Assembly: GCF_963676735.2 (NCBI RefSeq)
Contig: NZ_OY781464.1
Location: 4,260,476-4,324,475 of the forward strand
Length of the DNA: 64,000 bases
Source: an uncultured Draconibacterium sp.
GTDB lineage: Bacteria; Bacteroidota; Bacteroidia; Bacteroidales; Prolixibacteraceae
Direction of reading: 5' to 3'
The translations under genes and the position numbers were made by a program. The notes under the pieces were generated by a model. The model was not told where the DNA came from. It searched no databases and was given only the letters and a program-made list of their open reading frames with translations. This document shows, in pieces, positions 49,993 through 64,000 of this stretch. The first letter of the stretch is position 1; each line of letters opens with the position of its first letter.

Positions 49993-51606
49993 ATGAATAA
50001 GTTAAAATCAATTTTTATCATATTTCTTTCAACACTGGTACTTACCGCATGTGTTGATGATTTGGATGTTACGCCACAAGATCCGGATGTGATTATGGCA
50101 GGTAACCTCGAAGACAATCCGGCATATATGGACCAGGTAATGGCAAAAGTTTATGCCAGCTTTATTATTGCCGGCCAGGGAGCTAACGGAGGATCGGATA
50201 TTAGTGCCTCTGACGAGAACTTTTTTACCACCATGCGTGCCCTTTGGAACCTACAGGAAATTACTACCGACGAGGCCATTTGCGCCTGGGGAGATATAGG
50301 TATTGCTGATTTGAATACCCAAACCTGGAGTCCGAGCAACCCCTTCTTAACCGCTCTTTACCAGCGTTTGGGCTTGAGTATTACCTATGCCAACGATTTA
50401 ATTAACCTGGTAAAAAACAGCGACGATGCAAAATTGCAACAATACCATGCTGAAGCCCGCTTTTTAAGAGCACTGGCCTACTACTGGTTTATGGATTTGT
50501 TTGGCAATCCACCGTTTACAACTGAAGAAGACGGAGTTGGTAAATTTTATCCGGAACAAATTCAACGTGCAGACCTATTCAACTACATTGTTTCAGAACT
50601 GAAGGAAATTGAAACCCTTCTTCCCGAGCCAGGAAATTCATACCCGCAGGCCGACAAAGGGGCAGCCTGGATGTTGTTGGCCAGAGTTTACCTGAATGCC
50701 GAAGTTTATACCGGAACTGCACACTGGGACGATTGTAAAACCTATTGCAACAAAGTAATTAACAGTGGTGCTTATGCCCTGGCTGCCGATTACAGACATA
50801 ATTTTACAGCCGACAACCACTACGGCAGCAACCCCGAAATGATTTTTGCATGGGAACAAGATGGCGAAAATGTACAAGGTTTTGTGGGAACTACTTTTAT
50901 TATTGAATCGAGTTCAGATGCCACCTATCTTCGTGCTGAAGATTACCATGGTTTAACATCGAATACCAACTGGAACGGAAACCGCGCCCGTAAAGACTTT
51001 ATGAATATTTTGGTGGATACATTGGCAACCTACGGCGGACCAATTGACATGACCGATGTTCATTTTGCACAATGCCCCGACCAGCGTGTTTACCTGAAAA
51101 TGAAAAGAAGCCTTGACATTCCAAGTGCCTCGTCAAGCGGCGATTATGGCGTTGGAAACTACAAGTTTACTGCACTAAACCTCGATGGTTCGCAACCGGC
51201 CAATTACAATGAAGCCTACGCTTGTACCGACTTCCCAATTTTCCGTTTGGCCGACGCATACCTTATGCGTGCCGAATCAGAATTTAACCTGGGTAACACC
51301 GGTGCAGCAGTTGCTGATATCAATGTAATCAGAGAACGTGCCTACGGCAATACCTCAGGCAACATTACTGCCGACGAGCTTACAGCACAATTTATACTAG
51401 ACGAGCGTGCCCGCGAGTTTTACTACGAAGCTCAGCGCCGTACCGACCTTGTTCGCTTTGGACAATTTACCAGCGGCTCGTACCACTGGCAATGGAAAGG
51501 TGGCGTTTACGACGGTGTTGCTACCAGCAGCCATCTGGATCTTTTCCCAATTCCGGGTGATGAAGTTGCTGCCAACAGTAACATACAGCAAAACTCAGGT
51601 TATTAA
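49993..51606 (+). CDS. susD: SusD-like glycan-binding lipoprotein
   Basis: Lipobox LTAC; EARFLRALAYY, RLADAYLMRAE, ERAREFYYEAQRRTDLVRF, QQNSGY end. Confidence 0.95.
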   Translation: MNKLKSIFIIFLSTLVLTACVDDLDVTPQDPDVIMAGNLEDNPAYMDQVMAKVYASFIIAGQGANGGSDISASDENFFTTMRALWNLQEITTDEAICAWGDIGIADLNTQTWSPSNPFLTALYQRLGLSITYANDLINLVKNSDDAKLQQYHAEARFLRALAYYWFMDLFGNPPFTTEEDGVGKFYPEQIQRADLFNYIVSELKEIETLLPEPGNSYPQADKGAAWMLLARVYLNAEVYTGTAHWDDCKTYCNKVINSGAYALAADYRHNFTADNHYGSNPEMIFAWEQDGENVQGFVGTTFIIESSSDATYLRAEDYHGLTSNTNWNGNRARKDFMNILVDTLATYGGPIDMTDVHFAQCPDQRVYLKMKRSLDIPSASSSGDYGVGNYKFTALNLDGSQPANYNEAYACTDFPIFRLADAYLMRAESEFNLGNTGAAVADINVIRERAYGNTSGNITADELTAQFILDERAREFYYEAQRRTDLVRFGQFTSGSYHWQWKGGVYDGVATSSHLDLFPIPGDEVAANSNIQQNSGY

Positions 51607-51625
51607 TCGTTAAATGCATTTAGAA

Positions 51626-52636
51626 ATGAAGAAATTACTTTATATAACATTTATTGGACTGCTGGGGCTGCTTTATTCTTGCGAAAAGGATGGAGATCAG
51701 ATCTTTATTGCTGACAATCCGGTGCCCCCGTCAATAGTTTCGATGCCCGATTTAACATTGGAAAGAAACAATGGTACTGACATTTTAGAATTTGCTATTT
51801 CGCCAGTAGATCCTGGCTTTGTAGCATCAGCCAAATACTTTTTAGAAGCCTGTGCCACAGGCGATAATTTTACAAAAGTTACCTCAATTGCCAGCAAAGA
51901 TTTAGGTGAAAACTTTGAAATCTCTGTAGCCGACCTTAACGGAATCCTCTTAAAAAGTTTTCCGGCAGATGAAACTTCATCGGTTGATTTTAGAGTTCGC
52001 GCACGTTTGGTAGTTGATGGCGGAACAGGAGCTCCCGGAACTTCAGATGACGAATTTGAATACACCTCGGCAACTGAAACGGCCAGTGTTACACTTTATG
52101 GTCTTCCGCGCTTAGACCTGGTAAATTCAGGAATCGATCAGAAAATTGAATCGTCACTGGGTAACGGCGAATATTTTGGTTACGTGAAACTGGATGCTGC
52201 CATGCCTTTTACCCTTCTTGATCCGGACGCAAACGTTTCGTACGGTGGAAGCGGTGGAACTTTAACAGTTAACGGCCCCGGAATTGCCGTTGACGGTAGT
52301 GGCTGGTATAAAATGTCGGCCAGTACCAACGATTTAACTTACTCTACCGATGCTTATATGATTGGACTGGTAGGTTCGGCAACACCAAATGGATGGGATA
52401 CTCCCGACCAAAAAATGGATTACGATGCACAGTCAGGAACGTGGAGCATTACAATTGATTTGGCCGATGGCGAAATTAAATTCCGCTTAAACGATGGATG
52501 GGCATGGAACCTTGGCGGCACCGTGGATAACTTAACCCAGGGTGGCGACAATATTCCTGTTACAGCAGGTAATTACACCATTACCTTAACAATCAACAGC
52601 GACGACACCGGTACTTGTACTATTGTTAAAAACTAA
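51626..52636 (+). CDS. SusE-like starch-binding lipoprotein
   Basis: Lipobox LYSC; SusE N-domain; GLVGSATPNGWD and KFRLNDGWAWNLGG CBM motifs. Confidence 0.88.
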   Translation: MKKLLYITFIGLLGLLYSCEKDGDQIFIADNPVPPSIVSMPDLTLERNNGTDILEFAISPVDPGFVASAKYFLEACATGDNFTKVTSIASKDLGENFEISVADLNGILLKSFPADETSSVDFRVRARLVVDGGTGAPGTSDDEFEYTSATETASVTLYGLPRLDLVNSGIDQKIESSLGNGEYFGYVKLDAAMPFTLLDPDANVSYGGSGGTLTVNGPGIAVDGSGWYKMSASTNDLTYSTDAYMIGLVGSATPNGWDTPDQKMDYDAQSGTWSITIDLADGEIKFRLNDGWAWNLGGTVDNLTQGGDNIPVTAGNYTITLTINSDDTGTCTIVKN

Positions 52637-52644
52637 AAAGACTG

Positions 52645-54492
52645 ATGAAAATGAAAAATAAAATGATATACAGGTTTATGATTCTTCTGGTAGCAGTTGC
52701 GGCACTATTTGCCGCCTGTACCGAAGAAACAGCTCACGTTCGCCTGGAGCCAACCTTATCAACAGCAAATACTTTGAACATTACATCCGACTCGGCAACC
52801 GTTGTTGGTTTTGTAATTGCCGAAGGCGATGGATTTACAGAGCGTGGTGTTTGTTACAGTACTACTGAAAATCCAACAATTGATAACGACAAAAAAGCTT
52901 ACACTGAAGATACACCTAACGCTACCTTTTATGTACGCTTATCGGGCTTAACTTATGCTACCAAATATTACGCTCGTGCTTATGCTACCGGAGAAGCCGG
53001 TACGGTATATGGCGAACAGGTTGAATTTACAACTCTTCCAGTGGTTCCGTTCCTAAGCACTGCTGCTATTACCGAAATTACCGGTAATTCGGCCATAGGT
53101 GGCGGAGAAGTTACCGGATCGGGTGGTGCCGATGTTACGGCCCGCGGTATTGTTTTTGGAACTGAAGCCAACCCTACAATTTCGGGTGACAAAACTGCCG
53201 ATGGCGATGGCGTTGGTACTTTCGAAAGTATGCTGGAAAACCTTAAAGGCAACACTACTTACTATGTTCGTGCTTATGCAAGCAACACTGCCGGTACGGG
53301 CTACGGCCCACAGGTAAGTTTTAAAACATTGGTTGACTTGCCAAAAGTAAGCACAACTGCAGTTACCGGTGTTACCAAAACTTCGGGTACTACAGGTGGT
53401 GCTGTTACCGATAATGGTGGTGACGATATTACTGCCTACGGTATTGTGTGGGGAATGAGTTCGGAACCTACAACTGCCGATAATGTTATTGATGCAACAA
53501 TGCCTCTTGATTCGTTTGTAATTGAAATTACAGGCCTTGAGAAATACACCGAATATTATGTACGTGCATTTGCTACAAACAGTGCGGGTACAGCTTATGG
53601 CGAAAACATCATGTTTACAACGCTTGCCGATATTCTTACCTGGAATCTTCCTGGAGATTATGTTGAAGCAAGCTACCCGGGATCGGGACTAACAAACTGG
53701 TCGCCAGATAATTCTCCACAAGTGATTAGTACCATCGAAAATCCGTCGAGCCTGGAAGGGTTTGTTTATTTTGCAAACGACAACAACCAATGGAAATTTG
53801 CAACACAGCCCAACTGGGACGGTCCAAACTACGGAGATGATGGCTCAGGTAATCTTGATGCCGGTGCAGATAACATTAATTCGCCAAAAGGTTTTTATAA
53901 AATTAATGCCGATGCAACCGCATTAACCTATACCGCAATTAAACAGGTTTGGGGTGTTATTGGTAGTGCCTCGCCAATGGGCTGGGACGATGAAACACCA
54001 CTGGTTTACTCGCCTGAGGCTGTAAAATGGCAAGGAGTACTTCACTTAACTGCTGCAGATATTAAGTTCCGTGCCAATCACGATTGGGGCTTTAACTATG
54101 GTAGCGATGCGGCTGATGGTACGCTTCAGCCGGGAGGTGAAAATATTCCGGTTGCAGTGGAAGCTGATTATGCCATTGAAATTGATTTTAGCACGCCAAA
54201 CGAATATAAATACAGCCTTAACCGCTGGGGATTAATTGGCGATGCAACACCTGGTGGCTGGAGCGACGATACCGATATGACCTGGGATGCTGACAATGGA
54301 GTATTCACTGTAACACTCGACCTTACTGCTGCTTCATTTAAGTTCCGTGCCAACGATGGTTGGGATTTAAATTATGGTGGCGATCTTAGTGCACTTTCTC
54401 CCGGTGGCGATAACATTTCGATTGCCGAAGCCGGAAACTACACCATTACTTTCGATCCCTGGGGATTGACTGCAACAGTTACTAAAAATTAA
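52645..54492 (+). CDS. SusF/SusE-like lipoprotein with three N-terminal FN3-like repeats and ~3 starch-binding modules
   Basis: Lipobox FAAC; three ...RG(I/V)...PT...YY(A/V)RA(Y/F)A....GT.YG....F.TL repeats; KFRANHDWGFNYG and KFRANDGWDLNYG. Confidence 0.88.
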   Translation: MKMKNKMIYRFMILLVAVAALFAACTEETAHVRLEPTLSTANTLNITSDSATVVGFVIAEGDGFTERGVCYSTTENPTIDNDKKAYTEDTPNATFYVRLSGLTYATKYYARAYATGEAGTVYGEQVEFTTLPVVPFLSTAAITEITGNSAIGGGEVTGSGGADVTARGIVFGTEANPTISGDKTADGDGVGTFESMLENLKGNTTYYVRAYASNTAGTGYGPQVSFKTLVDLPKVSTTAVTGVTKTSGTTGGAVTDNGGDDITAYGIVWGMSSEPTTADNVIDATMPLDSFVIEITGLEKYTEYYVRAFATNSAGTAYGENIMFTTLADILTWNLPGDYVEASYPGSGLTNWSPDNSPQVISTIENPSSLEGFVYFANDNNQWKFATQPNWDGPNYGDDGSGNLDAGADNINSPKGFYKINADATALTYTAIKQVWGVIGSASPMGWDDETPLVYSPEAVKWQGVLHLTAADIKFRANHDWGFNYGSDAADGTLQPGGENIPVAVEADYAIEIDFSTPNEYKYSLNRWGLIGDATPGGWSDDTDMTWDADNGVFTVTLDLTAASFKFRANDGWDLNYGGDLSALSPGGDNISIAEAGNYTITFDPWGLTATVTKN

Positions 54493-54510
54493 TTTGAAAA
54501 AATGATATCT

Positions 54511-54546
54511 CAGAAACCTCTTCGATTGCGGAGGGGTTTCTGTTTT
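54511..54546 (+). terminator. Rho-independent terminator after susF
   Basis: CAGAAACCTCTTCG-ATTG-CGGAGGGGTTTCTG plus T run. Confidence 0.75.
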
Positions 54547-54560
54547 TAAAAGCCAGAACA

Positions 54561-57278
54561 ATGAATCGTTTATTTTCCTTATTAATTGCATTATTTTTTG
54601 TGCACAACATTACGGCTCAAATTACTACCGTGCCCGAAAAACCTGTTGCCACAAAAGCGGTTACCATAACTTTTAACTCCGACGAAAGTAACCTGGATTA
54701 TTACACCGGCGAATTATACGCCCACACAGGCCTTATCACCGATAAAAGTTCATCAAGTACCGACTGGAAATATGTAATTGAATCGTGGGGAAATAACGCA
54801 ACACAACCAAAACTTACCAATAAAGGTAATGGCATTTACGAACTGGAAATCAGCCCCGACATCTTGTCTTACTATTCGGTTAGCGCCGGCGACGATGTGC
54901 TTAAACTGGCTTTTGTGTTCCGATCGGCCGATGCCAACCAACAAACTGAAAACCTTTATGTTGATGTGTACAAAGAGGGCTTGCACATTGATATTTCGAG
55001 CCCCTCACAGAATGCTGTTTTGCCGCTTGGCGATTCGGTAACCATTTCTGCAACCTCAACCTTAACAGCAAATTTAAAGCTGTTTATAAATGATAATGAA
55101 ATTAGTTCATCAAACGGAACAATTATTTCAACGCAATATATTTTTGAAAACCTGGGCCAGAACTGGATTATTGCTGAAGCAACTGCCGACTCAACTGTTC
55201 GTGATTCGGTTTTGGTTGATGTAAAAGATTTTAAACTTAGTAAACCCGAAACATATAAAAACGGCATAAACTACACTTCAAACACCTCAGCAGCCCTCGT
55301 GCTATGGGCGCCCCTAAAAACTTATGTGTATGTTATTGGCGACTTTAATAACTGGGAAAAATCGGATGATTACCTAATGAATAAAGACGGTAATTTCTTT
55401 TGGATTGATATTACAAACCTTACTGAAGGACAAGAATATGCCTTTCAATACAGTATTGACGGGAACATAACAATAGCTGACCCCTATGCCGAAAAAATAC
55501 TTGACCCCTGGAATGACAAATACATCGATGAAGCTGTTTATCCCAACCTGAAAGCCTACCCTGAAGGAAAAACAGAAGGTACAGTATCGGTACTGCAAAC
55601 GGCACAGTCCGAGTACCAGTGGGAAATTGAAGACTTTGAAATGCCTGCGAACGAAAAACTGATTATTTACGAACTTCTGATTCGTGATTTTACCAGCGAA
55701 CATACCTATGCGTCAGTAATTGAGCAACTGGATTACCTTGAAGATTTGAATATAAATGTTTTGGAACTAATGCCGGTAAACGAGTTTGATGCCAATAGTA
55801 GCTGGGGCTACAATCCCACCTTCTACTTTGCACCAGACAAGTATTATGGTCCAAAAAACGAGCTGAAACGCCTTGTTGACGAATGCCATAAACGCGGAAT
55901 TGCAGTGGTAATTGATATGGTTCTTAACCATAGCTGGGGAGGCAGCCCCTTTGTGGAAATGTACATTGACGACATGGAGAACAATCCTTGGTACAACGTT
56001 ACCTCTCCAAATCCGGTGTTTTCGTGGGGTTATGATTTTAACCACGAAAGCGATGCTACGAAAGCACTGGTAGACAGCGTAAATTCATTTTGGTTAAACG
56101 AATACAATGTTGACGGATTTCGGTTTGATTTTACCAAGGGCTTCACAAACACGCCGGGCGATGGCTCTGGTTACGACCAACCACGAATTAATATTCTGAA
56201 ACGCATGGCTACCGAAATTTGGAAACGCAATTCGGATGCCCTTGTTATTTTGGAGCACTTTGCCAGCAACACCGAAGAAATGACATTAGCCGATTTTGGC
56301 ATGATGGTTTGGGGCAATAAAAACCACGCCTACGGCGAAAATCTAATGGGCTACGGAGCCAGCCTTTACGATGCCGTGGCCGAAAATCGGGGTTGGGAAA
56401 AACCCCACCTGGTAACCTATATGGAAAGCCACGATGAAGAACGATTGATTTATAAAAGTGTAAACTTTGGAGCAACAAATGGCGATTATAACACAAAAAA
56501 TTTGGCAACAGCCCTTGAAAGACAAAAGTTAAATGCCTTGTTTTTTATTCCGCTTCCGGGGCCAAAAATGATTTGGCAGTTTGGCGAACTGGGTTACGAC
56601 TACTCCATAAACTACTGCCCCAACGGGAGCATAAGCGATGACTGCCGAACTGCTGAAAAACCCTTGGTTTGGGATTATACAAATGATACACAACGAACCG
56701 AACTGTTTCAGGTTATGGCCAAATTAAACGAATTAAAACAAACCTACGAGGAATTTGCACCAACTGAAACGGAATATGCATTGGCCAACCAGACCAAATG
56801 GTACAAACTAAGCAAGAATGGAAAACATGTTGTTGGTATCGGAAATTTTGATCTTGAGGAAAAAGAAATTGCCATAACTTTTCCCGAAGCCGGCAAATAC
56901 TACGAATTTTTCAGTGGCGATTCAGTTGTATTTAATTCAGCAAGTCAATCGTTTACCTTTCAACCCGGAGAATACCGAATGTATTCCACAACAAAGTTTC
57001 ACGATCCGGAAATAGAAACGGATTACACCCTGATTTCCTCGGCTGAAAACAAGCTGCAGATTTATCCCAATCCGGCTTCAGGCAGGTTAACCATAGCCTC
57101 TGCCCAGGAGCTTTCAGCGGTTCAGGTATTCTCGGCTGCCGGAATTCTAAGCTATCAATCAGACAAAATTAAGGGATATAAACTTGAGATTAATGTTCAG
57201 GACTTTAGTCCGGGTATCTATTTTGTTCGGGTGCTACAAAACGGAAATAGCTCAACACAAAAGGTGGTGATAAAATAA
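54561..57278 (+). CDS. T9SS-secreted GH13 alpha-amylase/pullulanase-like enzyme with CBM48-like domain and type-A CTD
   Basis: IYELLIRDF, SWGYNP, DGFRFDFTKG, ILEHF, YMESHDE; C-terminal LQIYPNPA...PGIYFVRV...KVVIK. Confidence 0.92.
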   Translation: MNRLFSLLIALFFVHNITAQITTVPEKPVATKAVTITFNSDESNLDYYTGELYAHTGLITDKSSSSTDWKYVIESWGNNATQPKLTNKGNGIYELEISPDILSYYSVSAGDDVLKLAFVFRSADANQQTENLYVDVYKEGLHIDISSPSQNAVLPLGDSVTISATSTLTANLKLFINDNEISSSNGTIISTQYIFENLGQNWIIAEATADSTVRDSVLVDVKDFKLSKPETYKNGINYTSNTSAALVLWAPLKTYVYVIGDFNNWEKSDDYLMNKDGNFFWIDITNLTEGQEYAFQYSIDGNITIADPYAEKILDPWNDKYIDEAVYPNLKAYPEGKTEGTVSVLQTAQSEYQWEIEDFEMPANEKLIIYELLIRDFTSEHTYASVIEQLDYLEDLNINVLELMPVNEFDANSSWGYNPTFYFAPDKYYGPKNELKRLVDECHKRGIAVVIDMVLNHSWGGSPFVEMYIDDMENNPWYNVTSPNPVFSWGYDFNHESDATKALVDSVNSFWLNEYNVDGFRFDFTKGFTNTPGDGSGYDQPRINILKRMATEIWKRNSDALVILEHFASNTEEMTLADFGMMVWGNKNHAYGENLMGYGASLYDAVAENRGWEKPHLVTYMESHDEERLIYKSVNFGATNGDYNTKNLATALERQKLNALFFIPLPGPKMIWQFGELGYDYSINYCPNGSISDDCRTAEKPLVWDYTNDTQRTELFQVMAKLNELKQTYEEFAPTETEYALANQTKWYKLSKNGKHVVGIGNFDLEEKEIAITFPEAGKYYEFFSGDSVVFNSASQSFTFQPGEYRMYSTTKFHDPEIETDYTLISSAENKLQIYPNPASGRLTIASAQELSAVQVFSAAGILSYQSDKIKGYKLEINVQDFSPGIYFVRVLQNGNSSTQKVVIK

Positions 57279-57335: not shown

Positions 57336-58271
57336 CTATTTCTGAGCCGTTGCTGAACGGCGGTTAAACAAATCAAAATCATAGCTAAACATGATTTCGT
57401 GTGTGCCGTTGCTAAAGGCATTTAGCTCTGTAATGGTTATGTCGTACGAATAGCCAATGGCCATTTTGGGTGTAGGTTTAAACTGGGTAATTATGCCGTA
57501 GGCAGCATCAAAGCGATACATGGCTCCCACCCAAAATTTATTTCTGAAGCCCCCCATAACTGTTAAATCAACTGAAACGGGAGCACCGGCAACATATTTA
57601 AGCATTCCGTTACCTTTTAGTTGAATGTCTTCGTTTAGTTCCAGTTTGTGCCCGGCAACAAAATAAATGTGCATTTGCTGGGTGTTAATATAGTCCGTGG
57701 TAACATCCTGGCGTGTAATTTTATTTTCTATCAGCCGGGGTACCGACAATCCAAAGTAGGTATCATCGGAAAACAGAAACATACCAATCCCCCCATTCGG
57801 GAGAAAGTTTTCGTAGATGTCGTTATCAAAAATAGGGTCAGGATCGATAGTAGCCAAATCAGTAAGGCTTGCCCTGTAAAAGCTTACTCCTCCTTTTAAG
57901 CCCAGACCGAGTTTAAAATCTTCGGTAACTCTAATAAAATACGAATAATCAGCATAAACACCGGTTTGACTTAGCGGGCCAATTTTATCGGACAGCACCG
58001 AAAATCCAAAACCAACATTTTTATCCTCAATAGAGGAATTGTAGGCAAAAGAGCGTGTAGATGGTGCCCCATCAAATGCCACCCACTGACTTCGTGCTAC
58101 CAGCAATGCATTCCCAACATCTTTTGAACCTGCAAAACCAGGGTTAATTACCAAAAGGTTATCCATATACTGCGTATACATCGGGTCCTGCTGGGCACTG
58201 GCATTACTACTTTGTAAAAGAATTACAAAAAGTAAATTTATATATGCTGCTATTTTTACAAATCTTCCCAT
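57336..58271 (-). CDS. PorP/SprF family T9SS outer-membrane protein
   Basis: AQQDPMYTQYMDNLLVINPGFAG, RSQWVAFDGAPST, GYSYD, GTHEIMFSY. Confidence 0.94.
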   Translation of the reverse strand: MGRFVKIAAYINLLFVILLQSSNASAQQDPMYTQYMDNLLVINPGFAGSKDVGNALLVARSQWVAFDGAPSTRSFAYNSSIEDKNVGFGFSVLSDKIGPLSQTGVYADYSYFIRVTEDFKLGLGLKGGVSFYRASLTDLATIDPDPIFDNDIYENFLPNGGIGMFLFSDDTYFGLSVPRLIENKITRQDVTTDYINTQQMHIYFVAGHKLELNEDIQLKGNGMLKYVAGAPVSVDLTVMGGFRNKFWVGAMYRFDAAYGIITQFKPTPKMAIGYSYDITITELNAFSNGTHEIMFSYDFDLFNRRSATAQK

Positions 58272-60275
58272 TTATCTGTCGATATATACCGAACCTGCTA
58301 TTGGTTGTTCGCCGTTTCCAAGGTCTAAAACATAAAAGTAAGTTCCGGTTGGTAAATCACTGTTTCCGCCTCCCTGGTTTGATTTTCCATCCCAAAACAC
58401 CGGAATGGTAGACAGGCCATAGTTCTGAGCTTCGTAAACTTTTTTGCCCCAACGATTAATAATAGTTATTGAATTGCCTTCAAACATTTCAATTCCCTGA
58501 ATCTCGAAAAAGTCGTTAATATTATCGCCATTAGGCGTAAATGCTTCGGGAATAAAAAAGTCGAGCGCCATCACATAAACGTAAACATGCGCATTGTCGC
58601 ATTTGGCAAAGTAGTTGCAAATCCTGTATTCAAACACATCACCGCCAAGAAAACCATCATCAGGCCGGTAAGTTACCGTTGCATCTTGATTAATGTTGGC
58701 TGTTCCGTTTACAGGATGTTGAACAATCTCTAAAGAAGCCGGATTGAGTTCACCTCCCTGCGGATCTTCATCGTTTGCCAGCACTGCAATGGTGATTGTT
58801 TTTTCGTAATTGGTTGTATCGTAAACATCGCGGGCTATTGGTGCAGAAATAAAACGGCTTACCACAACAGAGTCGATGGCCGCGCATCCATAAATATCGC
58901 TTACCTGCAAATAATAGGTTCCTGCCGAACTAATTTCGGGTGTAGCTGTATTCTGTCCGCCAACAAAAGTTCCGTTGCTGGTTGTCCAGTTGAATTCAAT
59001 TTGCTGACCACTGCTACCCATTCCGTTTAAAAGAGCAGTTGTTCCATCTTCAAGCATAAAGTCATCGCCGGCATCGGCACTAATCTCTGCTACCCCAATT
59101 TCAACCGTATCTTTACCCACAACCCCATCGGCATTGCTTACTGTTAATATAAACTCGGTGGTATTTCCCGGTGTAAATACGGGGTTTAGTTGTGTCGGAT
59201 CGTCAAGGTTTTCTATCGGGATCCACGAATAGATTAAACCGCTTGTGTCTGAAACTGTGGCCTGTAACTTAAACGGGCTACAACTTCCTGTCAAGGTATC
59301 TATTCCGGCTGAGAAAATAAGATCATATCCGGTTTTTAATATTCCTATTCTTTGCACTGCAGTATCGCTGGAACACCCGTTTCCATCTATGGCATATACT
59401 TGTAAAGTATAATCACCCGAGATACCATCCCAAACAATATCAGCCTCATTACTAAAATTACTTTCCAAATCTGCAGATGTTCCTTCCGGTGGATCAACCG
59501 ACCAGAAATACCTGGCTCCCTGCAAATTCCCGACAATCATGGCAACCTCATGTGTATAAACAGTATTACGCTCAAGTTTTAAATCACCCACATCAAAAGC
59601 CAGTTGTGGTTTTGGGTAGATGATTCGCGAATGTACATCCGGTGCGGATGTTGCAAGAGTGTTATTCTCATTATCAACTGCACCGGTTATTTCTACTTCA
59701 ACGGTATTGTTTAAGTCTGAATCAGCCGTAAACATTGCAGAAGAAATGGCTAAGGCCTGGTTGTCAAATTCAACTTGCTGCGCATACAAATTGCCATTAA
59801 CAAGAAAACTAACAGTTAAGGGATAGAAAAGCTCCTTAAGTGGCTCTCCATCAATATCACTGGCCACCAGCGAAAGGTTAAAATCATTTCCTGATGAATT
59901 AAAACAGTCGTTACTACTGGTTTCAAAAAAACGAATTGAACGGTTATTGGGAAGAATGGAAACGGCAAGTGCTTTCAGGTTTGTACACCCGGAGGCATCC
60001 GTTTCAACAACCGTTAAATAATACCTGCCAGCCTGAAGCCAATGCACTGTTATCTCATTTACATCGTTGGCGTCAGTAAAGTAACATTCTGTTGGGTCAG
60101 CAGGAATAGCGGGGTTGAGGCTTTTAAAAATCTCCCAATGGTATTCACTTCCGGGATGATTTACAACATGATGTGTTGTTTCGGCACCTTCGTATTCGAC
60201 AATATCCTGCTGGGCTGCCCCATTTAGGGCAGCCAGCAGGGTTAATATCATTATGAAAAATGCCTTAATTCTCAA
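58272..60275 (-). CDS. Exported multi-Ig/PKD-like protein with T9SS type-B (gliding motility-associated) CTD; putative anchor
   Basis: Signal peptide; cadherin/Big_9-like VLANDEDP...HPVNGT..TYRP; C-terminal FIPEAFTPNGDNINDFFEI...INRWG..VY...YFYVL. Confidence 0.9.
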   Translation of the reverse strand: MRIKAFFIMILTLLAALNGAAQQDIVEYEGAETTHHVVNHPGSEYHWEIFKSLNPAIPADPTECYFTDANDVNEITVHWLQAGRYYLTVVETDASGCTNLKALAVSILPNNRSIRFFETSSNDCFNSSGNDFNLSLVASDIDGEPLKELFYPLTVSFLVNGNLYAQQVEFDNQALAISSAMFTADSDLNNTVEVEITGAVDNENNTLATSAPDVHSRIIYPKPQLAFDVGDLKLERNTVYTHEVAMIVGNLQGARYFWSVDPPEGTSADLESNFSNEADIVWDGISGDYTLQVYAIDGNGCSSDTAVQRIGILKTGYDLIFSAGIDTLTGSCSPFKLQATVSDTSGLIYSWIPIENLDDPTQLNPVFTPGNTTEFILTVSNADGVVGKDTVEIGVAEISADAGDDFMLEDGTTALLNGMGSSGQQIEFNWTTSNGTFVGGQNTATPEISSAGTYYLQVSDIYGCAAIDSVVVSRFISAPIARDVYDTTNYEKTITIAVLANDEDPQGGELNPASLEIVQHPVNGTANINQDATVTYRPDDGFLGGDVFEYRICNYFAKCDNAHVYVYVMALDFFIPEAFTPNGDNINDFFEIQGIEMFEGNSITIINRWGKKVYEAQNYGLSTIPVFWDGKSNQGGGNSDLPTGTYFYVLDLGNGEQPIAGSVYIDR

Positions 60276-60304
60276 CTAAATAAGAATTTGGGTTAGAAAA
60301 TAGC

Positions 60305-60361
60305 GTGTCAACGATGACACACATTAAACATCTTACAAACCTGATAAAGATGATCTTTATC
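60305..60361 (-). other. Two intergenic stem-loops between the putative subunit and anchor genes
   Basis: GTGTCA-ACGA-TGACAC (60305-60320) and GATAAAGA-TGA-TCTTTATC (60343-60361). Confidence 0.6.
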
Positions 60362-60392
60362 CAGTCTGCATTACCAATTAGTTATGTGCTAA

Positions 60393-61208
60393 TTAGTTTG
60401 TACTAATTCCACTGGTATTTGGTCTGCCAACATCTGTTGCATCAACGTATGTACCATCTGCACCATTATCAGCAACACCGTTACTTGTTTCACCATTGGA
60501 AATTGTAGCTGTTCCGGTGTAGTCTTGTGCATCAACTGCAGAGCTGTTGTCATAAGTATTTGTGTTATCAACAACATAAGTAATTGTAACTGCAGCATTA
60601 TCTGTTACTGTAACGGTTCCGCCTGCGATAGAAGCATTGGCTGAAACTGAAACATTAGAAGCATCAAGACCAGTGAAAGCACCAAAATCTAAATCAATAT
60701 CAAAACTGTATCCTGTGTACGATGTACTGAAATCATAAGGAGTTACAGTAAATTCAATGGTTGCATTTCCGTGATCGTAATTTACAGTTGAAGGATCTGC
60801 CAGACTAACAACTACTGCACCATCGTAGCATTGCGTAGCGTTTGCTGCAATAATTTCCAGATAGAATGGACTTGCTGTAATTTGAACCGGAAGAACTTTT
60901 GTATTGGAACAGCCACCGCCATCTGTTTCGACTACTTGAACATAGTACCAGTCACCTACAGTTAATCCAGCGCCCCATGTAATGTCAGTAGTAGCCGAAG
61001 AAGCAGAAGCAACTGTAACACCAGCAGCTACGGTTGTAAGATCATCTTCCAGAACAGTCCAGGCTATTGTATTTGCTACATTTCCCGGTGTAATTGAATA
61101 CTCATGTGTTGCTCCGGGTGCCGGAGTTTCACCTGTACTTTGTGCAAAAACATTTGCACTAATTGCGGTTAAAAGAACCGCTGCGAAAAGAAAAATCAAC
61201 TTTTTCAT
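60393..61208 (-). CDS. Exported two-domain beta-rich hypothetical protein without recognisable T9SS CTD
   Basis: Start re-placed at ATG 61208 (MKKLIFLFAAVLLTAISANVFA signal peptide); PKD-like N-domain; ends GRPNTSGISTN. Confidence 0.85.
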   Translation of the reverse strand: MKKLIFLFAAVLLTAISANVFAQSTGETPAPGATHEYSITPGNVANTIAWTVLEDDLTTVAAGVTVASASSATTDITWGAGLTVGDWYYVQVVETDGGGCSNTKVLPVQITASPFYLEIIAANATQCYDGAVVVSLADPSTVNYDHGNATIEFTVTPYDFSTSYTGYSFDIDLDFGAFTGLDASNVSVSANASIAGGTVTVTDNAAVTITYVVDNTNTYDNSSAVDAQDYTGTATISNGETSNGVADNGADGTYVDATDVGRPNTSGISTN

Positions 61209-61259
61209 AATGATAAAATTTAAAGTATTAATAAATAAATTGTTGTTATTCAATATTTT

Positions 61260-64000
61260 CTAATTTGTGTTAATATCACTGGTATCTGGTACACCATCCA
61301 GGGTGACCGAATCGCTATTATTTGTTGTATTTATTTCATTTACGCCGCATGCATCACGCACATTAGTAATTGTTAATGTGTATGTTTTGCTTTGAGCTGT
61401 TTCGTTGTCGGCATCAAAGCTTACCTTTGTATTTCCGTTGGCACCAACATTGTTTCCACTTGCAACTACTGTAGCCCCTTCTGTTATTTCATAATCAAAA
61501 GTCCAGTCATCCGTACCCGAAAGTTTTGTAATGTTCCAGGTAACCGTGGTAGTTGAGCCGGTTTCGCCGCTTTGGCAACTATTACCGAGATCCTGGACTT
61601 CAACATCAATATCTTCTTCCGGAACAATTGTTACGTTTTGATTGCATGTTGCTGTATTTCCTGCTATGTCGGTTACCGTCCATGTTACTATTGTGGTTCC
61701 CAGCGGATAACTTGCGGGAGCGTTATTGTTAATTATGCCAACGCCGCAATTATCACTGCTTACCGGACTTCCAAGTGTTACGCCGGTTGCCACACATGAC
61801 CCTGCGTCAACACTTTCGTTAACATCTGCCGGACATGTAATCGTTGGATCTGTTACATCATCGATCACCACATTCTGGGTTTGTGTACTTGTATTTCCGT
61901 TGCCATCATCGTAAGTCCAGGTTACGACTGTGGTTCCCTGGGTAGTGATCGGTAAAGTAGTTGTAGTTGTTCCGGTAACTGTACCTGCACAATTATCTGT
62001 CGCAGTGGGTGCGGTTAAAGTGGTGACTTCGCACTCGGCTGTTATATCAGGCAAGGTTGCAATATCTGGTATCGGATCTTCTACATCTTCTACTGTAATT
62101 GTTATGGAGCCACAAGTTGGATCATCACATGAACTTCCTTCTCCTCTTGCGTAAAATGTTGTGGTAGTGGTAAGGTTATTTACCGTATAAGAATTTGTGG
62201 CTGTAGTACCATCTTGAGTTCCTCCACAACTACCGGTGTAAAAAACCCAATCGCTTGCATCATTTAAATCTCCTGAAATAGTAATGGTAACATCTGAGCC
62301 CGGACAAACAGTTGTTGAGGCAGCAGATAATACCGGAACATCAGCAGGAGTACATGGCGATGAAACATTAACAGCGTAGTCTTCCACTTCTCCCCACTGA
62401 AAGTCTCCGCAAGGTAAGGCACCTGTATCATCAGCATCACCCTGAAGCACAATTCTCATAGTAGTTAAACCTACACTGGCAGTTAAGGGTATGCTTATGG
62501 TTCCCGACATTGTACTATTCCCAGTGTAGCCACTTTCATACATCAATTCAGTACCTTCATCAAAGGTGCCATCCTGGTCAAGATCAATATAAACCTTGCA
62601 GTAACCTCCATATTCATCAGCTAAGAATTCATTTGCGACTGAAACAGCATAGTCCTGTCCAAGTATTACTTCCGCCGGAGTAACAGTACCTGTATAATCA
62701 GTATATCCTGATGTTTTTGAAACAGGAGAATTGTTGTTTATTCCTGCGAATGTTACGTTAGTAATTGACTCGTATAAATTAAATTCAGTTGAAGTAGCAG
62801 AACAGTAACACGAACTACTACCTGTTGTGAATGTCCAGGTACTTTCACCAGTGGCATCTCCACAAGCATTTTTAGGTACAACTTTCCAGTAATAAGTTGT
62901 GTTTGCTGCCAGGGTTCCGGTTGAATAACTGTTTGTGGCAACATTCGCTGTAACACTTCCAGGCAAACTACCTGCTCCAAAGTACACATCGTATGAAGTA
63001 GCATCTGCTACAACATCCCAAGAAACAGAACTAATAGCGCCATCACCTGCATAACACACATTTGTAGCTGCATTGGCCGGAGATGGATTTGCAGTTGTTG
63101 GCGGCACAGTGAGTATTGTAACATCTGCCTGGCCAGACATTAAGAGATCGCAATCCTCTGAAACATTGTGTCCGTTCACGGTGTAAGTACCTGCAACTGT
63201 TTGATTACCAAAACTTATTGCAGATCCTGTCCCTGAAACCACATCGCCGGTTGGTGAACCATCGAGGTATAATTCATAGTCAACTCCTGATTCTGAGTCA
63301 TCTAATCCTACAACAACGCCAGCTCCTCCCGAACAATAACTGCCTCCACCGGTAACATTTTGAACTGTTACATTACAAGCTGCGGTAATATTTAATGAAT
63401 AATCCTCTACCTCTCCATAATCGAAATCAAGACAAGGATTTGCACAAGAAGTCTCATTATAAATTAAACGTACTCTCAGCCTGGTAGAACCCAAAGCGGC
63501 ACCTGAAGGTACATTGAATGTATAGGTTTCTTGATTGTTCCCATTATTATCCAGGCCAAAATCGCAAACGATATTATCCCCTGCTTGAGTAAATTCTCCG
63601 TCCTGGTCCCAGTCTACCCAAACATGTATTCCATAGCTTGTATTGGAAAATACATCCACGGTTAAAGAAACTCCTGTTTCTCCCTGAACTAAATCAGTCG
63701 ATAAAACTGTAAAGTCGCCAAATCCACCTCCTGAAAAGCCTGTACCTGCAGAAGAATTATCAATACTACCTAACCTTACCCGATCAATATATCGTAAGTT
63801 ATTACTTACACTTGGCTCACAATAACTAACATCACCGGTAGCAAAACTCCAGATAGCACAACCATTTGCATTTCCATTTGCATTATAGGGTACAATCCGC
63901 CAGTAATAATCGGTAAGAAAATCAAGATCTGAAGATGGGGTATAAGAGGTTACGTTGCCTAAATCTGTACCATTTTCAATGTTGGTAGCTCCGGCATCTG
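61260..64000 (-). CDS. Large adhesin-like protein (at least 2 GEVED, FN3-like, Ig-like and HYR-like domains); 5' end outside the window
   Basis: Manual translation shows the frame stays open from 63659 to the window edge; GEVEDY twice, YYW(K/R)(V/I)VP FN3-like segments, ATDNC/SSDNC HYR-like repeats; ends GVPDTSDINTN. Confidence 0.9.
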   Translation of the reverse strand, partial: DAGATNIENGTDLGNVTSYTPSSDLDFLTDYYWRIVPYNANGNANGCAIWSFATGDVSYCEPSVSNNLRYIDRVRLGSIDNSSAGTGFSGGGFGDFTVLSTDLVQGETGVSLTVDVFSNTSYGIHVWVDWDQDGEFTQAGDNIVCDFGLDNNGNNQETYTFNVPSGAALGSTRLRVRLIYNETSCANPCLDFDYGEVEDYSLNITAACNVTVQNVTGGGSYCSGGAGVVVGLDDSESGVDYELYLDGSPTGDVVSGTGSAISFGNQTVAGTYTVNGHNVSEDCDLLMSGQADVTILTVPPTTANPSPANAATNVCYAGDGAISSVSWDVVADATSYDVYFGAGSLPGSVTANVATNSYSTGTLAANTTYYWKVVPKNACGDATGESTWTFTTGSSSCYCSATSTEFNLYESITNVTFAGINNNSPVSKTSGYTDYTGTVTPAEVILGQDYAVSVANEFLADEYGGYCKVYIDLDQDGTFDEGTELMYESGYTGNSTMSGTISIPLTASVGLTTMRIVLQGDADDTGALPCGDFQWGEVEDYAVNVSSPCTPADVPVLSAASTTVCPGSDVTITISGDLNDASDWVFYTGSCGGTQDGTTATNSYTVNNLTTTTTFYARGEGSSCDDPTCGSITITVEDVEDPIPDIATLPDITAECEVTTLTAPTATDNCAGTVTGTTTTTLPITTQGTTVVTWTYDDGNGNTSTQTQNVVIDDVTDPTITCPADVNESVDAGSCVATGVTLGSPVSSDNCGVGIINNNAPASYPLGTTIVTWTVTDIAGNTATCNQNVTIVPEEDIDVEVQDLGNSCQSGETGSTTTVTWNITKLSGTDDWTFDYEITEGATVVASGNNVGANGNTKVSFDADNETAQSKTYTLTITNVRDACGVNEINTTNNSDSVTLDGVPDTSDINTN

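Follow-up and report, generated by a model that had tools for sequence, protein, structure and literature searches.

Substrates of type IX secretion systems (T9SS) are defined by their C-terminal domains (CTDs). How might exported proteins that lack such a domain reach the surface of Bacteroidota? A compact case for this question is offered by a locus of a Draconibacterium sp. that occupies positions 57336-64000 of the 64,000-nucleotide stretch analyzed here (the window; C1:4260476-4324475 of a 5.3-Mb genome, contig NZ_OY781464.1). Four co-oriented open reading frames (ORFs) of the minus strand encode, in this order, a large adhesin, a 271-aa exported protein, a protein with a type-B CTD (the presumptive anchor) and a PorP/SprF-family protein. 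The analysis described below suggests that the locus might specify a surface fibre or adhesin that is split into modules and anchored by the T9SS, a reading to which we give about an even chance. At its heart lies a tail of about ten residues, which appears to pass the CTD-less proteins to the CTD-bearing anchor.

The four genes and their domain content

The features of the locus, all on the minus strand, are as follows.

61260 to beyond 64000, minus strand: gene of the adhesin (proposed tip), with two GEVED domains, an Ig_7, an HYR-like and an HYR domain (Pfam); T9SS CTD absent.
61263-61637, minus strand: conserved C-terminal module of the tip, about 125 aa, the proposed docking module; ends DLGNSCQSGETGSTTT.TW...NNSD..T..GVP.T..I..N, followed by the stop codon.
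61263-61292, minus strand: tail of the tip, VPDTSDINTN, at the end of the ORF.
60393-61208, minus strand: 271-aa exported protein (the "major" subunit), comprising a signal peptide for signal peptidase I (SPI), two beta-sandwich domains, of which the N-terminal one is Ig-like, and a tail.
60864-61139, minus strand: N-terminal domain of the 271-aa protein, proposed acceptor; begins with an invariant QSTGxxPAPGATHxY.
60396-60425, minus strand: tail of the major subunit, RPNTSGISTN, at the stop codon; its residues R, P, T, I and N do not vary among 20 homologues.
60303-60322, minus strand: predicted terminator-like hairpin within the 117 nt that separate the subunit gene from the anchor gene.
58272-60275, minus strand: anchor, 667 aa, with N-terminal Ig-like domains, Big_9/cadherin-like domains and a T9SS type-B CTD.
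59946-60212, minus strand: first domain of the anchor, homologous to the subunit N-domain; proposed acceptor of the subunit tail.
59586-59627, minus strand: tail-like junction inside the anchor, RIIYPKPQLAFDVG, from an AlphaFold2 (AF2) model.
58275-58553, minus strand: type-B CTD (CHU_C / TIGR04131; Pfam, NCBIfam).
57336-58271, minus strand: PorP/SprF-family outer-membrane barrel, whose start abuts the anchor stop codon and which contains no cysteine.

The original prediction, made from the sequence alone, had listed four genes of this order, strand and size, and had assigned a T9SS CTD to the third gene only. The ORF check returned the genes as described, and the CTD assignment was borne out by the Pfam and NCBIfam searches: residues 575-665 of the anchor matched PF13585 (2.3e-25) and TIGR04131 (50.2 bits against a cut-off of 35), and no CTD model matched the adhesin or the 271-aa protein at E <= 0.01. 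The last gene matched PF11751 (1.4e-74) and TIGR03519 (256.6 bits). SprA (TIGR04189, 2,723 bits) is encoded at C1:3351170-3358453, hence the genome has a T9SS translocon; it also has eight PorP paralogues. The adhesin frame stays open past the window end to about 64,794, which places its 5′ end some 790 nt outside; the protein is about 1,126-1,168 aa long, and the annotated product (P0133) has 1,126 aa. The 271-aa protein starts from an ATG codon at 61208 and gave no family match in Pfam (E <= 0.01) or NCBIfam searches. The signal peptides end in ...NVFAQ, ...VVAQ and ...GAAQ, and a lipobox cysteine is absent from all of them, in agreement with the prediction of ordinary, non-lipoprotein export signals. 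The proposed resemblance of the 271-aa protein to the N-terminal half of the anchor had to be narrowed. What the two have in common is one N-terminal domain of about 90 aa, present in two Ig-like copies in the anchor (BLASTP E = 2e-6 and 5e-4; profile E = 4e-7), and not the whole half. As a side observation, one reading frame (58272-61640, minus strand) contains the adhesin, a 286-codon form of the subunit ORF and the anchor ORF, with only stops between them; the subunit and anchor frames match in about one third of the related loci, as often as chance would predict.

A conserved tail at the ends of the CTD-less proteins

The adhesin ends in DGVPDTSDINTN and the 271-aa protein in VGRPNTSGISTN, each directly followed by the stop codon. 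The prediction had pointed to these near-identical tails, and a comparison of ORF ends throughout the 5.3-Mb genome found them to be the only two of their kind. A looser version of the pattern was present in 93 of 121 full-length representatives of the 271-aa protein family, against 9 of 4,189 other genome ORFs of at least 150 aa. Both ends of the mature protein hardly vary among 20 homologues with 54-77% identity: QSTGxxPAPGATHxY at the N-terminus and V[AS]RP[NH]T[ST]GIxTN at the C-terminus, with the stop always exactly behind the tail. The tails are likewise terminal and nearly invariant across the wider family, to which 189 of the clusters formed at 50% identity belong (1.84 billion representatives in all), and all of them have the core P-x-T-x-x-I in common. 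Judged from these alignments, the tail is a conserved functional element rather than a chance resemblance.

Two known kinds of terminal signal were considered and rejected. Some tip tails read LPxTG, like a sortase signal, but no hydrophobic segment follows the motif, no sortase gene lies nearby and the motif is internal in fused homologues (see below). The tails also do not fit the beta-signal of outer membrane proteins, as they end in N or D and lack an aromatic last residue.

Conserved plan and distribution of the locus

About 50 loci were read. Their constant plan starts with a large, variable and optional adhesin (about 320-3,246 aa), continues with one to five small SPI-exported proteins of 230-400 aa and a protein with a type-B CTD, whose length ranges from 468 to more than 3,000 aa, and finishes with PorP/SprF. 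Every protein encoded upstream of the anchor has a tail at its end. The predicted layout of a tip adhesin, intermediate subunit or subunits, a T9SS type-B base and PorP fits about 45 related loci. Synteny of homologues with PorP and CTD-B genes, which the prediction had called for and which we checked by profile, was also found: a CTD-B gene lies downstream in every related locus for which the fetched sequence was long enough, and PorP follows it directly in all of these except L054. The tip's tail module of about 125 aa sits behind unrelated passengers (GEVED, Gly_rich_2, MBG_2, PA14, LamG). By this conservation of plan, the four genes are one functional unit.

Homologues of the 271-aa protein (166 word-indexed, 250-309 aa) are almost all annotated as "hypothetical", with one record reading "pilus assembly protein" for which there is no supporting model; the named ones come from Draconibacterium and Mariniphaga. 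Profile searches recovered relatives from 26 of 61 genomes within the same taxonomic family, from 2 of 200 other genomes of the order and from none of 400 genomes sampled across the phylum. Related loci are mostly from Prolixibacteraceae, and two further families of the order have the same layout with tail variants of their own.

The idea that a split layout might be a general feature of PorP loci was discarded: none of the 400 phylum-wide genomes matched, and the PorP loci sampled in other classes encode, where a cargo is present, a single giant CTD-B protein. The same holds for the other PorP loci examined in the Draconibacterium genome. In the genome of the window (G000), two such single-polypeptide type-B-CTD giants, of 2,869 and 4,096 aa, are encoded at C1:995308-1017000 and C1:5100-18400. 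Each is followed by its own PorP paralogue, and therefore split and unsplit designs coexist in one genome. The single-giant loci fit the idea that the locus studied here could be a split version of that design.

Tail flavour follows the identity of the next gene

Within a locus, the tails are of one flavour, which may be PNTSxIxT[DN], MPxIxGFxG or RPxI..P. In the PNTS group, the flavour varies further with position. The gene immediately 5′ of the anchor ends in [KV][AS]RPxT..I..., and "minor" proteins of about 255 aa end in N.IPNTSxI.TD. The ends of the tips are related to the gene that comes next: in 21 of 22 loci, a tip that ends in TGEIIPD has a minor gene behind it (the one exception, L051, contains masked sequence), while tips that end like that of the window are directly followed by a major-type gene in 13 of 13 loci and by a minor gene in none (Fisher test for the association of tip tail and minor gene, 9e-9). 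When the rule was stated beforehand for six tips known from sequence alone, all six fitted it. In three loci (L059, L067, L069), the major tail is changed to RPHTTTI, and the tail of the preceding protein is still PNTS or PATS.

Loci of the second flavour (L021, L027, L029, L031, L032) also have order-specific tails. In three of the five, the successive proteins terminate in ...G[AST]F[NS]., then in ...G.MGGV and then, before the anchor, in ...[GN]F.G. (each at the stop codon), a pattern that suggests an independent tail code in this subgroup.

Fused homologues and structure models

Five natural proteins of 551-619 aa contain two modules in one polypeptide. Their internal junction reads ...IIYAIPSTQNITFG-EGETATSA.NPLQNSRHRYTV..., in which the tail motif, with the same eight-residue stretch behind its proline, continues into a "GET...THxY" segment that forms the N-terminal part of the next module. 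The segment after the fused junction is similar to the next protein's mature N-terminus (QSTGETPAPGATHEY), the "GET" included. Homologues of the double-module proteins lie, in two genomes of the family, within loci full of tail-bearing proteins. A comparable arrangement was seen inside the anchor. In the AF2 model, its internal junction consists of a VHSRIIY strand, PKP, a QLAF strand, DVG, a DLKLE strand, RN and a TVYTHEVAMIV strand; one domain thus ends with its last strand, and a linker with proline leads to the strands with which the next N-like domain begins. The tails have a like form (...ATDV-GRP-NTSGI-STN at the stop codon). The N-domain of the 271-aa protein begins nine residues before its THEY strand, so the leading strands are absent from it. 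Taken together, the fused junctions and the anchor junction give the split genes the appearance of a modular chain in which each cut falls directly behind the first strand of the domain that follows.

The AF2 monomer of the 271-aa protein (predicted local distance difference test, pLDDT, 85.8) shows two beta-sandwich domains. Foldseek comparison of this model with the PDB returned generic tandem Ig proteins as the best 50 matches, with template-modelling (TM) scores of at most 0.33, and no FimA/Mfa chain was among these 50. Docking was modelled with a pseudo-multimer, in which the stretch 59286-61640 of the window (minus strand) was read through its stop codons (as G) so as to combine the C-terminal module of the tip, the subunit and residues 1-330 of the anchor. 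The paired alignment came from nine other loci with subunit and anchor in frame.

A possible assembly on a T9SS-exported anchor

We propose that all four proteins would reach the periplasm by way of ordinary signal peptides, and that the 667-aa type-B-CTD cargo would be exported by the SprA translocon and remain on its own PorP/SprF barrel. The adhesin and the 271-aa protein, having no CTD, would each use the tail P-x-T-S-x-I-x-T-N to dock on the N-terminal Ig-like domain of the next gene product. The resulting chain would be collinear with the gene order (tip adhesin, 271-aa subunit, anchor, PorP), the order of assembly being set by the flavour of the tail, and would act like a giant SprB-type adhesin divided into exchangeable pieces. 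Its CTD-less parts would leave the periplasm bound to the anchor. Domain content, synteny, conservation of the tail, the tail-to-next-gene rule and the fused homologues are directly observed in the loci; docking, its structural nature and this joint export are inferred. Since the tail corresponds to the linker and first beta-strand leading into the next domain of uncut relatives, the joint between tail and N-domain would most likely be made in trans, by addition or complementation of a strand. The 271-aa subunit would probably occur once or a few times, rather than as a long homopolymer.

Several observations weigh against this proposal. In the AF2 monomer, both domains are confidently folded and the tail is a loose coil at pLDDT 71-77. 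The pseudo-multimer gave a predicted TM score of 0.44 and no confident docking, in a model where the tip module had no alignment rows and uncleaved signal peptides served as linkers; subunit and anchor were folded in it and the tip module was not, with the tip tail unstructured and the subunit tail forming only a two-residue bridge. The conserved T and I of the tail are three residues apart and have a conserved G between them, a spacing unlike the alternation of hydrophobic residues in classical donor strands. The literature searched gave no route for proteins without a CTD to pass the outer membrane together with T9SS cargo. Finally, the tail-to-next-gene rule could partly reflect shared descent. 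Pure shared descent as its source is argued against by the pair L067 and L069, whose tip modules, majors and anchors are 80%, 66% and 71% identical and which differ in tail type and in the presence of the minor gene.

Should the proposal hold, the cargo of the T9SS would extend to non-covalent assemblies, and an explanation would be at hand for a class of exported proteins that are annotated as "hypothetical" in Prolixibacteraceae from the sea and from sediments. The loci would hold a readable tail code that fixes subunit order, with the tip gene swapped like a cassette at a fixed chromosomal site, and would provide a small peptide-domain pair, possibly useful for surface display. Export of type-B cargo by SprA and its retention by a PorP-like carrier are established; the assembly of several proteins on a T9SS anchor through tails is new as far as the literature was searched, which, also when it was searched for a T9SS-linked pilus or donor-strand fibre, yielded no description of a T9SS-anchored multi-subunit fibre joined by terminal tails.

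Comparison with known systems

Type-B cargo is exported by SprA and held by a PorP-like carrier (PMC9143113, PMC12618676, PMC12635249). By its family matches and gene arrangement, the anchor-PorP pair of the window is a regular member of this type-B CTD/PorP class. SprB-SprF of Flavobacterium johnsoniae (sprCDBF) and PG1035-PorP of Porphyromonas gingivalis likewise have a type-B CTD gene immediately upstream of its own PorP/SprF paralogue. The likeness to SprB-SprF extends to the SprA translocon of the genome, to the filamentous chain of Ig-like domains on the surface, as proposed here, and to the presence of CTD-less genes upstream in the operon (sprC and sprD, which are set beside the genes of the window by layout only). 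Unlike SprB, the passenger and the stalk are here separate CTD-less polypeptides, putatively joined via their C-terminal tails. A further difference concerns the carrier. A Cys-x-Cys (CxC) motif in SprF's periplasmic C-tail forms a disulfide to GldK, and is required for coupling to the gliding track and dispensable for carrier function (PMC12635249). The PorP paralogue of the window, in contrast, has no CxC tail that could link it to GldK, and track-driven movement is not expected. With a PorP partner that lacks the element coupling SprF to the track, the fibre would probably be a static, non-gliding adhesin. Cysteines are also missing from the mature protein in 18 of 21 PorP partners at related loci. 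Beside this, it may be recorded that the PorP/SprF paralogue of the window has a very short C-tail and that PorP-like proteins of other classes (L078, L080, L083) end in an SprF-like CxC.

The prediction had drawn an analogy to type V pili, which holds at the level of function and fails for the lipoprotein signal, the FimA/Mfa family and the fold. Type V pili (FimA/Mfa1, with the anchors FimB/Mfa2 and the tips FimC-E/Mfa3-5) are found in Bacteroidota and follow the same logic of tip, shaft and anchor in one operon, and their C-terminal strand binds the next subunit, as would the tails proposed here. Type V pilins are lipoproteins of the FimA/Mfa fold that are matured by gingipains. The proteins of the window differ in that they have SPI signal peptides, match no FimA/Mfa family, give no such fold among the best 50 structural matches, and have a T9SS cargo as base. 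Chaperone-usher pili resemble the proposed assembly in having ordered Ig-like subunits set by a short terminal strand and a tip adhesin with a variable domain. The proposed strand, however, is C-terminal where theirs is N-terminal, lacks the alternating hydrophobic pattern, and belongs to a system exported via the T9SS. No PapD-like chaperone or usher family was matched by any of the four operon genes (Pfam, NCBIfam). On its gene and domain content, the system is neither a type V nor a chaperone-usher pilus.

Alternative explanations

The prediction had gone further in casting the 271-aa protein as a repeating shaft. In such a true pilus, this protein would form a homopolymer by head-to-tail donor-strand complementation, the adhesin would cap it, and the CTD-B protein would terminate and anchor it. 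The gene logic of tip, shaft and base is indeed like that of pili, and self-binding is conceivable inasmuch as RPNTSGISTN fits the consensus P[ND]TS.I.T[DN] of the tails that precede the subunit and are presumed to bind its N-domain. Strong hairpins follow the major gene in many relatives, though not in all; where they resemble terminators, they would lower the expression of anchor and PorP relative to the subunit. A hairpin also follows the tip gene, however, and hence would bring no excess of subunit over tip; the hairpins after the major gene are compatible with either a chain or a shaft. The occurrence of one to five distinct small subunit genes per locus and of fused double modules suggests that length is encoded by the genes, and on this count the repeating shaft was not upheld. 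Moreover, the change to RPHTTTI is unmatched by the preceding tails, so that tails seem not to share one pocket, the AF2 models show no open groove being filled, and genes for a chaperone, usher, protease or sortase are absent from the locus. We consider a homopolymeric shaft unlikely. It is similarly doubtful that the locus represents a new class of pilus, in which Ig-like subunits exported by Sec, free of chaperone, usher, sortase and maturation protease, would be joined by C-terminal donor strands in an order given by the tail code, and the whole fibre exported by the T9SS via the CTD of its base. If that were the case, the T9SS would be able to export non-covalent multi-protein assemblies.

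The tail might instead be a sorting signal acting in trans, recognized by one common receptor (such as the PorP barrel, an anchor domain close to the CTD, or a component of the T9SS), with each protein exported or anchored independently and no chain being formed. A core shared by all tails, and their occurrence only beside a CTD-B/PorP pair, would suit a single receptor. Yet the flavour depends on position and follows the identity of the next gene rather than that of the anchor or PorP, and in the fused proteins the motif lies inside the chain and runs directly on into the following module, where it cannot serve as a terminal signal; this explanation strikes us as quite improbable. Finally, the tail could be a functionless linker left over from gene fission, in which case the adhesin and the 271-aa protein would be independent of the anchor and either periplasmic or released. 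The failure to obtain docking in AF2 models is in line with this, as is the resemblance of the motif to ordinary Ig-domain junctions of Bacteroidota adhesins (V.V.P.P....I), for instance RIIYPKPQLAF in the anchor. A leftover would hardly retain invariant R, P, T, I and N and an exact end in homologues that are only 54-77% identical and in a family of 189 clusters, nor flavours specific to locus and position, nor a strict synteny with CTD-B and PorP genes. We regard it as highly improbable.

Expression signals and neighbouring genes

In Draconibacterium, the operon keeps one place in the chromosome, preceded by a conserved leader that resembles a promoter, and the tip gene varies. Seen in this arrangement, the tip gene behaves as an exchangeable cassette behind a fixed promoter. 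The leader, of about 330 nt, is located 5′ of the hypervariable tip gene (C1:4325270-4325630, beyond the window) and is conserved in L001, L034, L038, L047 and L056. Its elements include TGTTAATT..TTTA and GTAACAAGTTGTAATTGTTATATTTGA, the latter like the Bacteroidota -7 motif TAnnTTTG, and GTAAGAGTAAAAGAATTGTG just before the start codon. In L036, two complete operons with different tips are arranged in tandem.

The operon is flanked upstream by PadR-PspC-DUF4252 genes and downstream by a convergent polysaccharide utilization locus for starch. This starch locus (49993-57278, plus strand) encodes SusD, SusE and SusF-like proteins as well as a GH13 amylase that carries CBM48 and a type-A T9SS CTD, and is a neighbour of the operon in Draconibacterium relatives as well. 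Many genera have a gene for a protein of about 660-680 aa directly 3′ of PorP (L018, L025, L026, L033, L037, L057, L058), which is absent from the operon of the window; the L037 copy, with PD40, CarboxypepD_reg and OmpA domains, appears PorE-like. In several genera (L014, L017, L018, L020, L033 and L057), a gene upstream of the operon encodes a 251-aa response-regulator-like protein (MxRTVIIDDD...KYKEELLDKLLHNRL), probably of the LytTR type, which may be a dedicated regulator.

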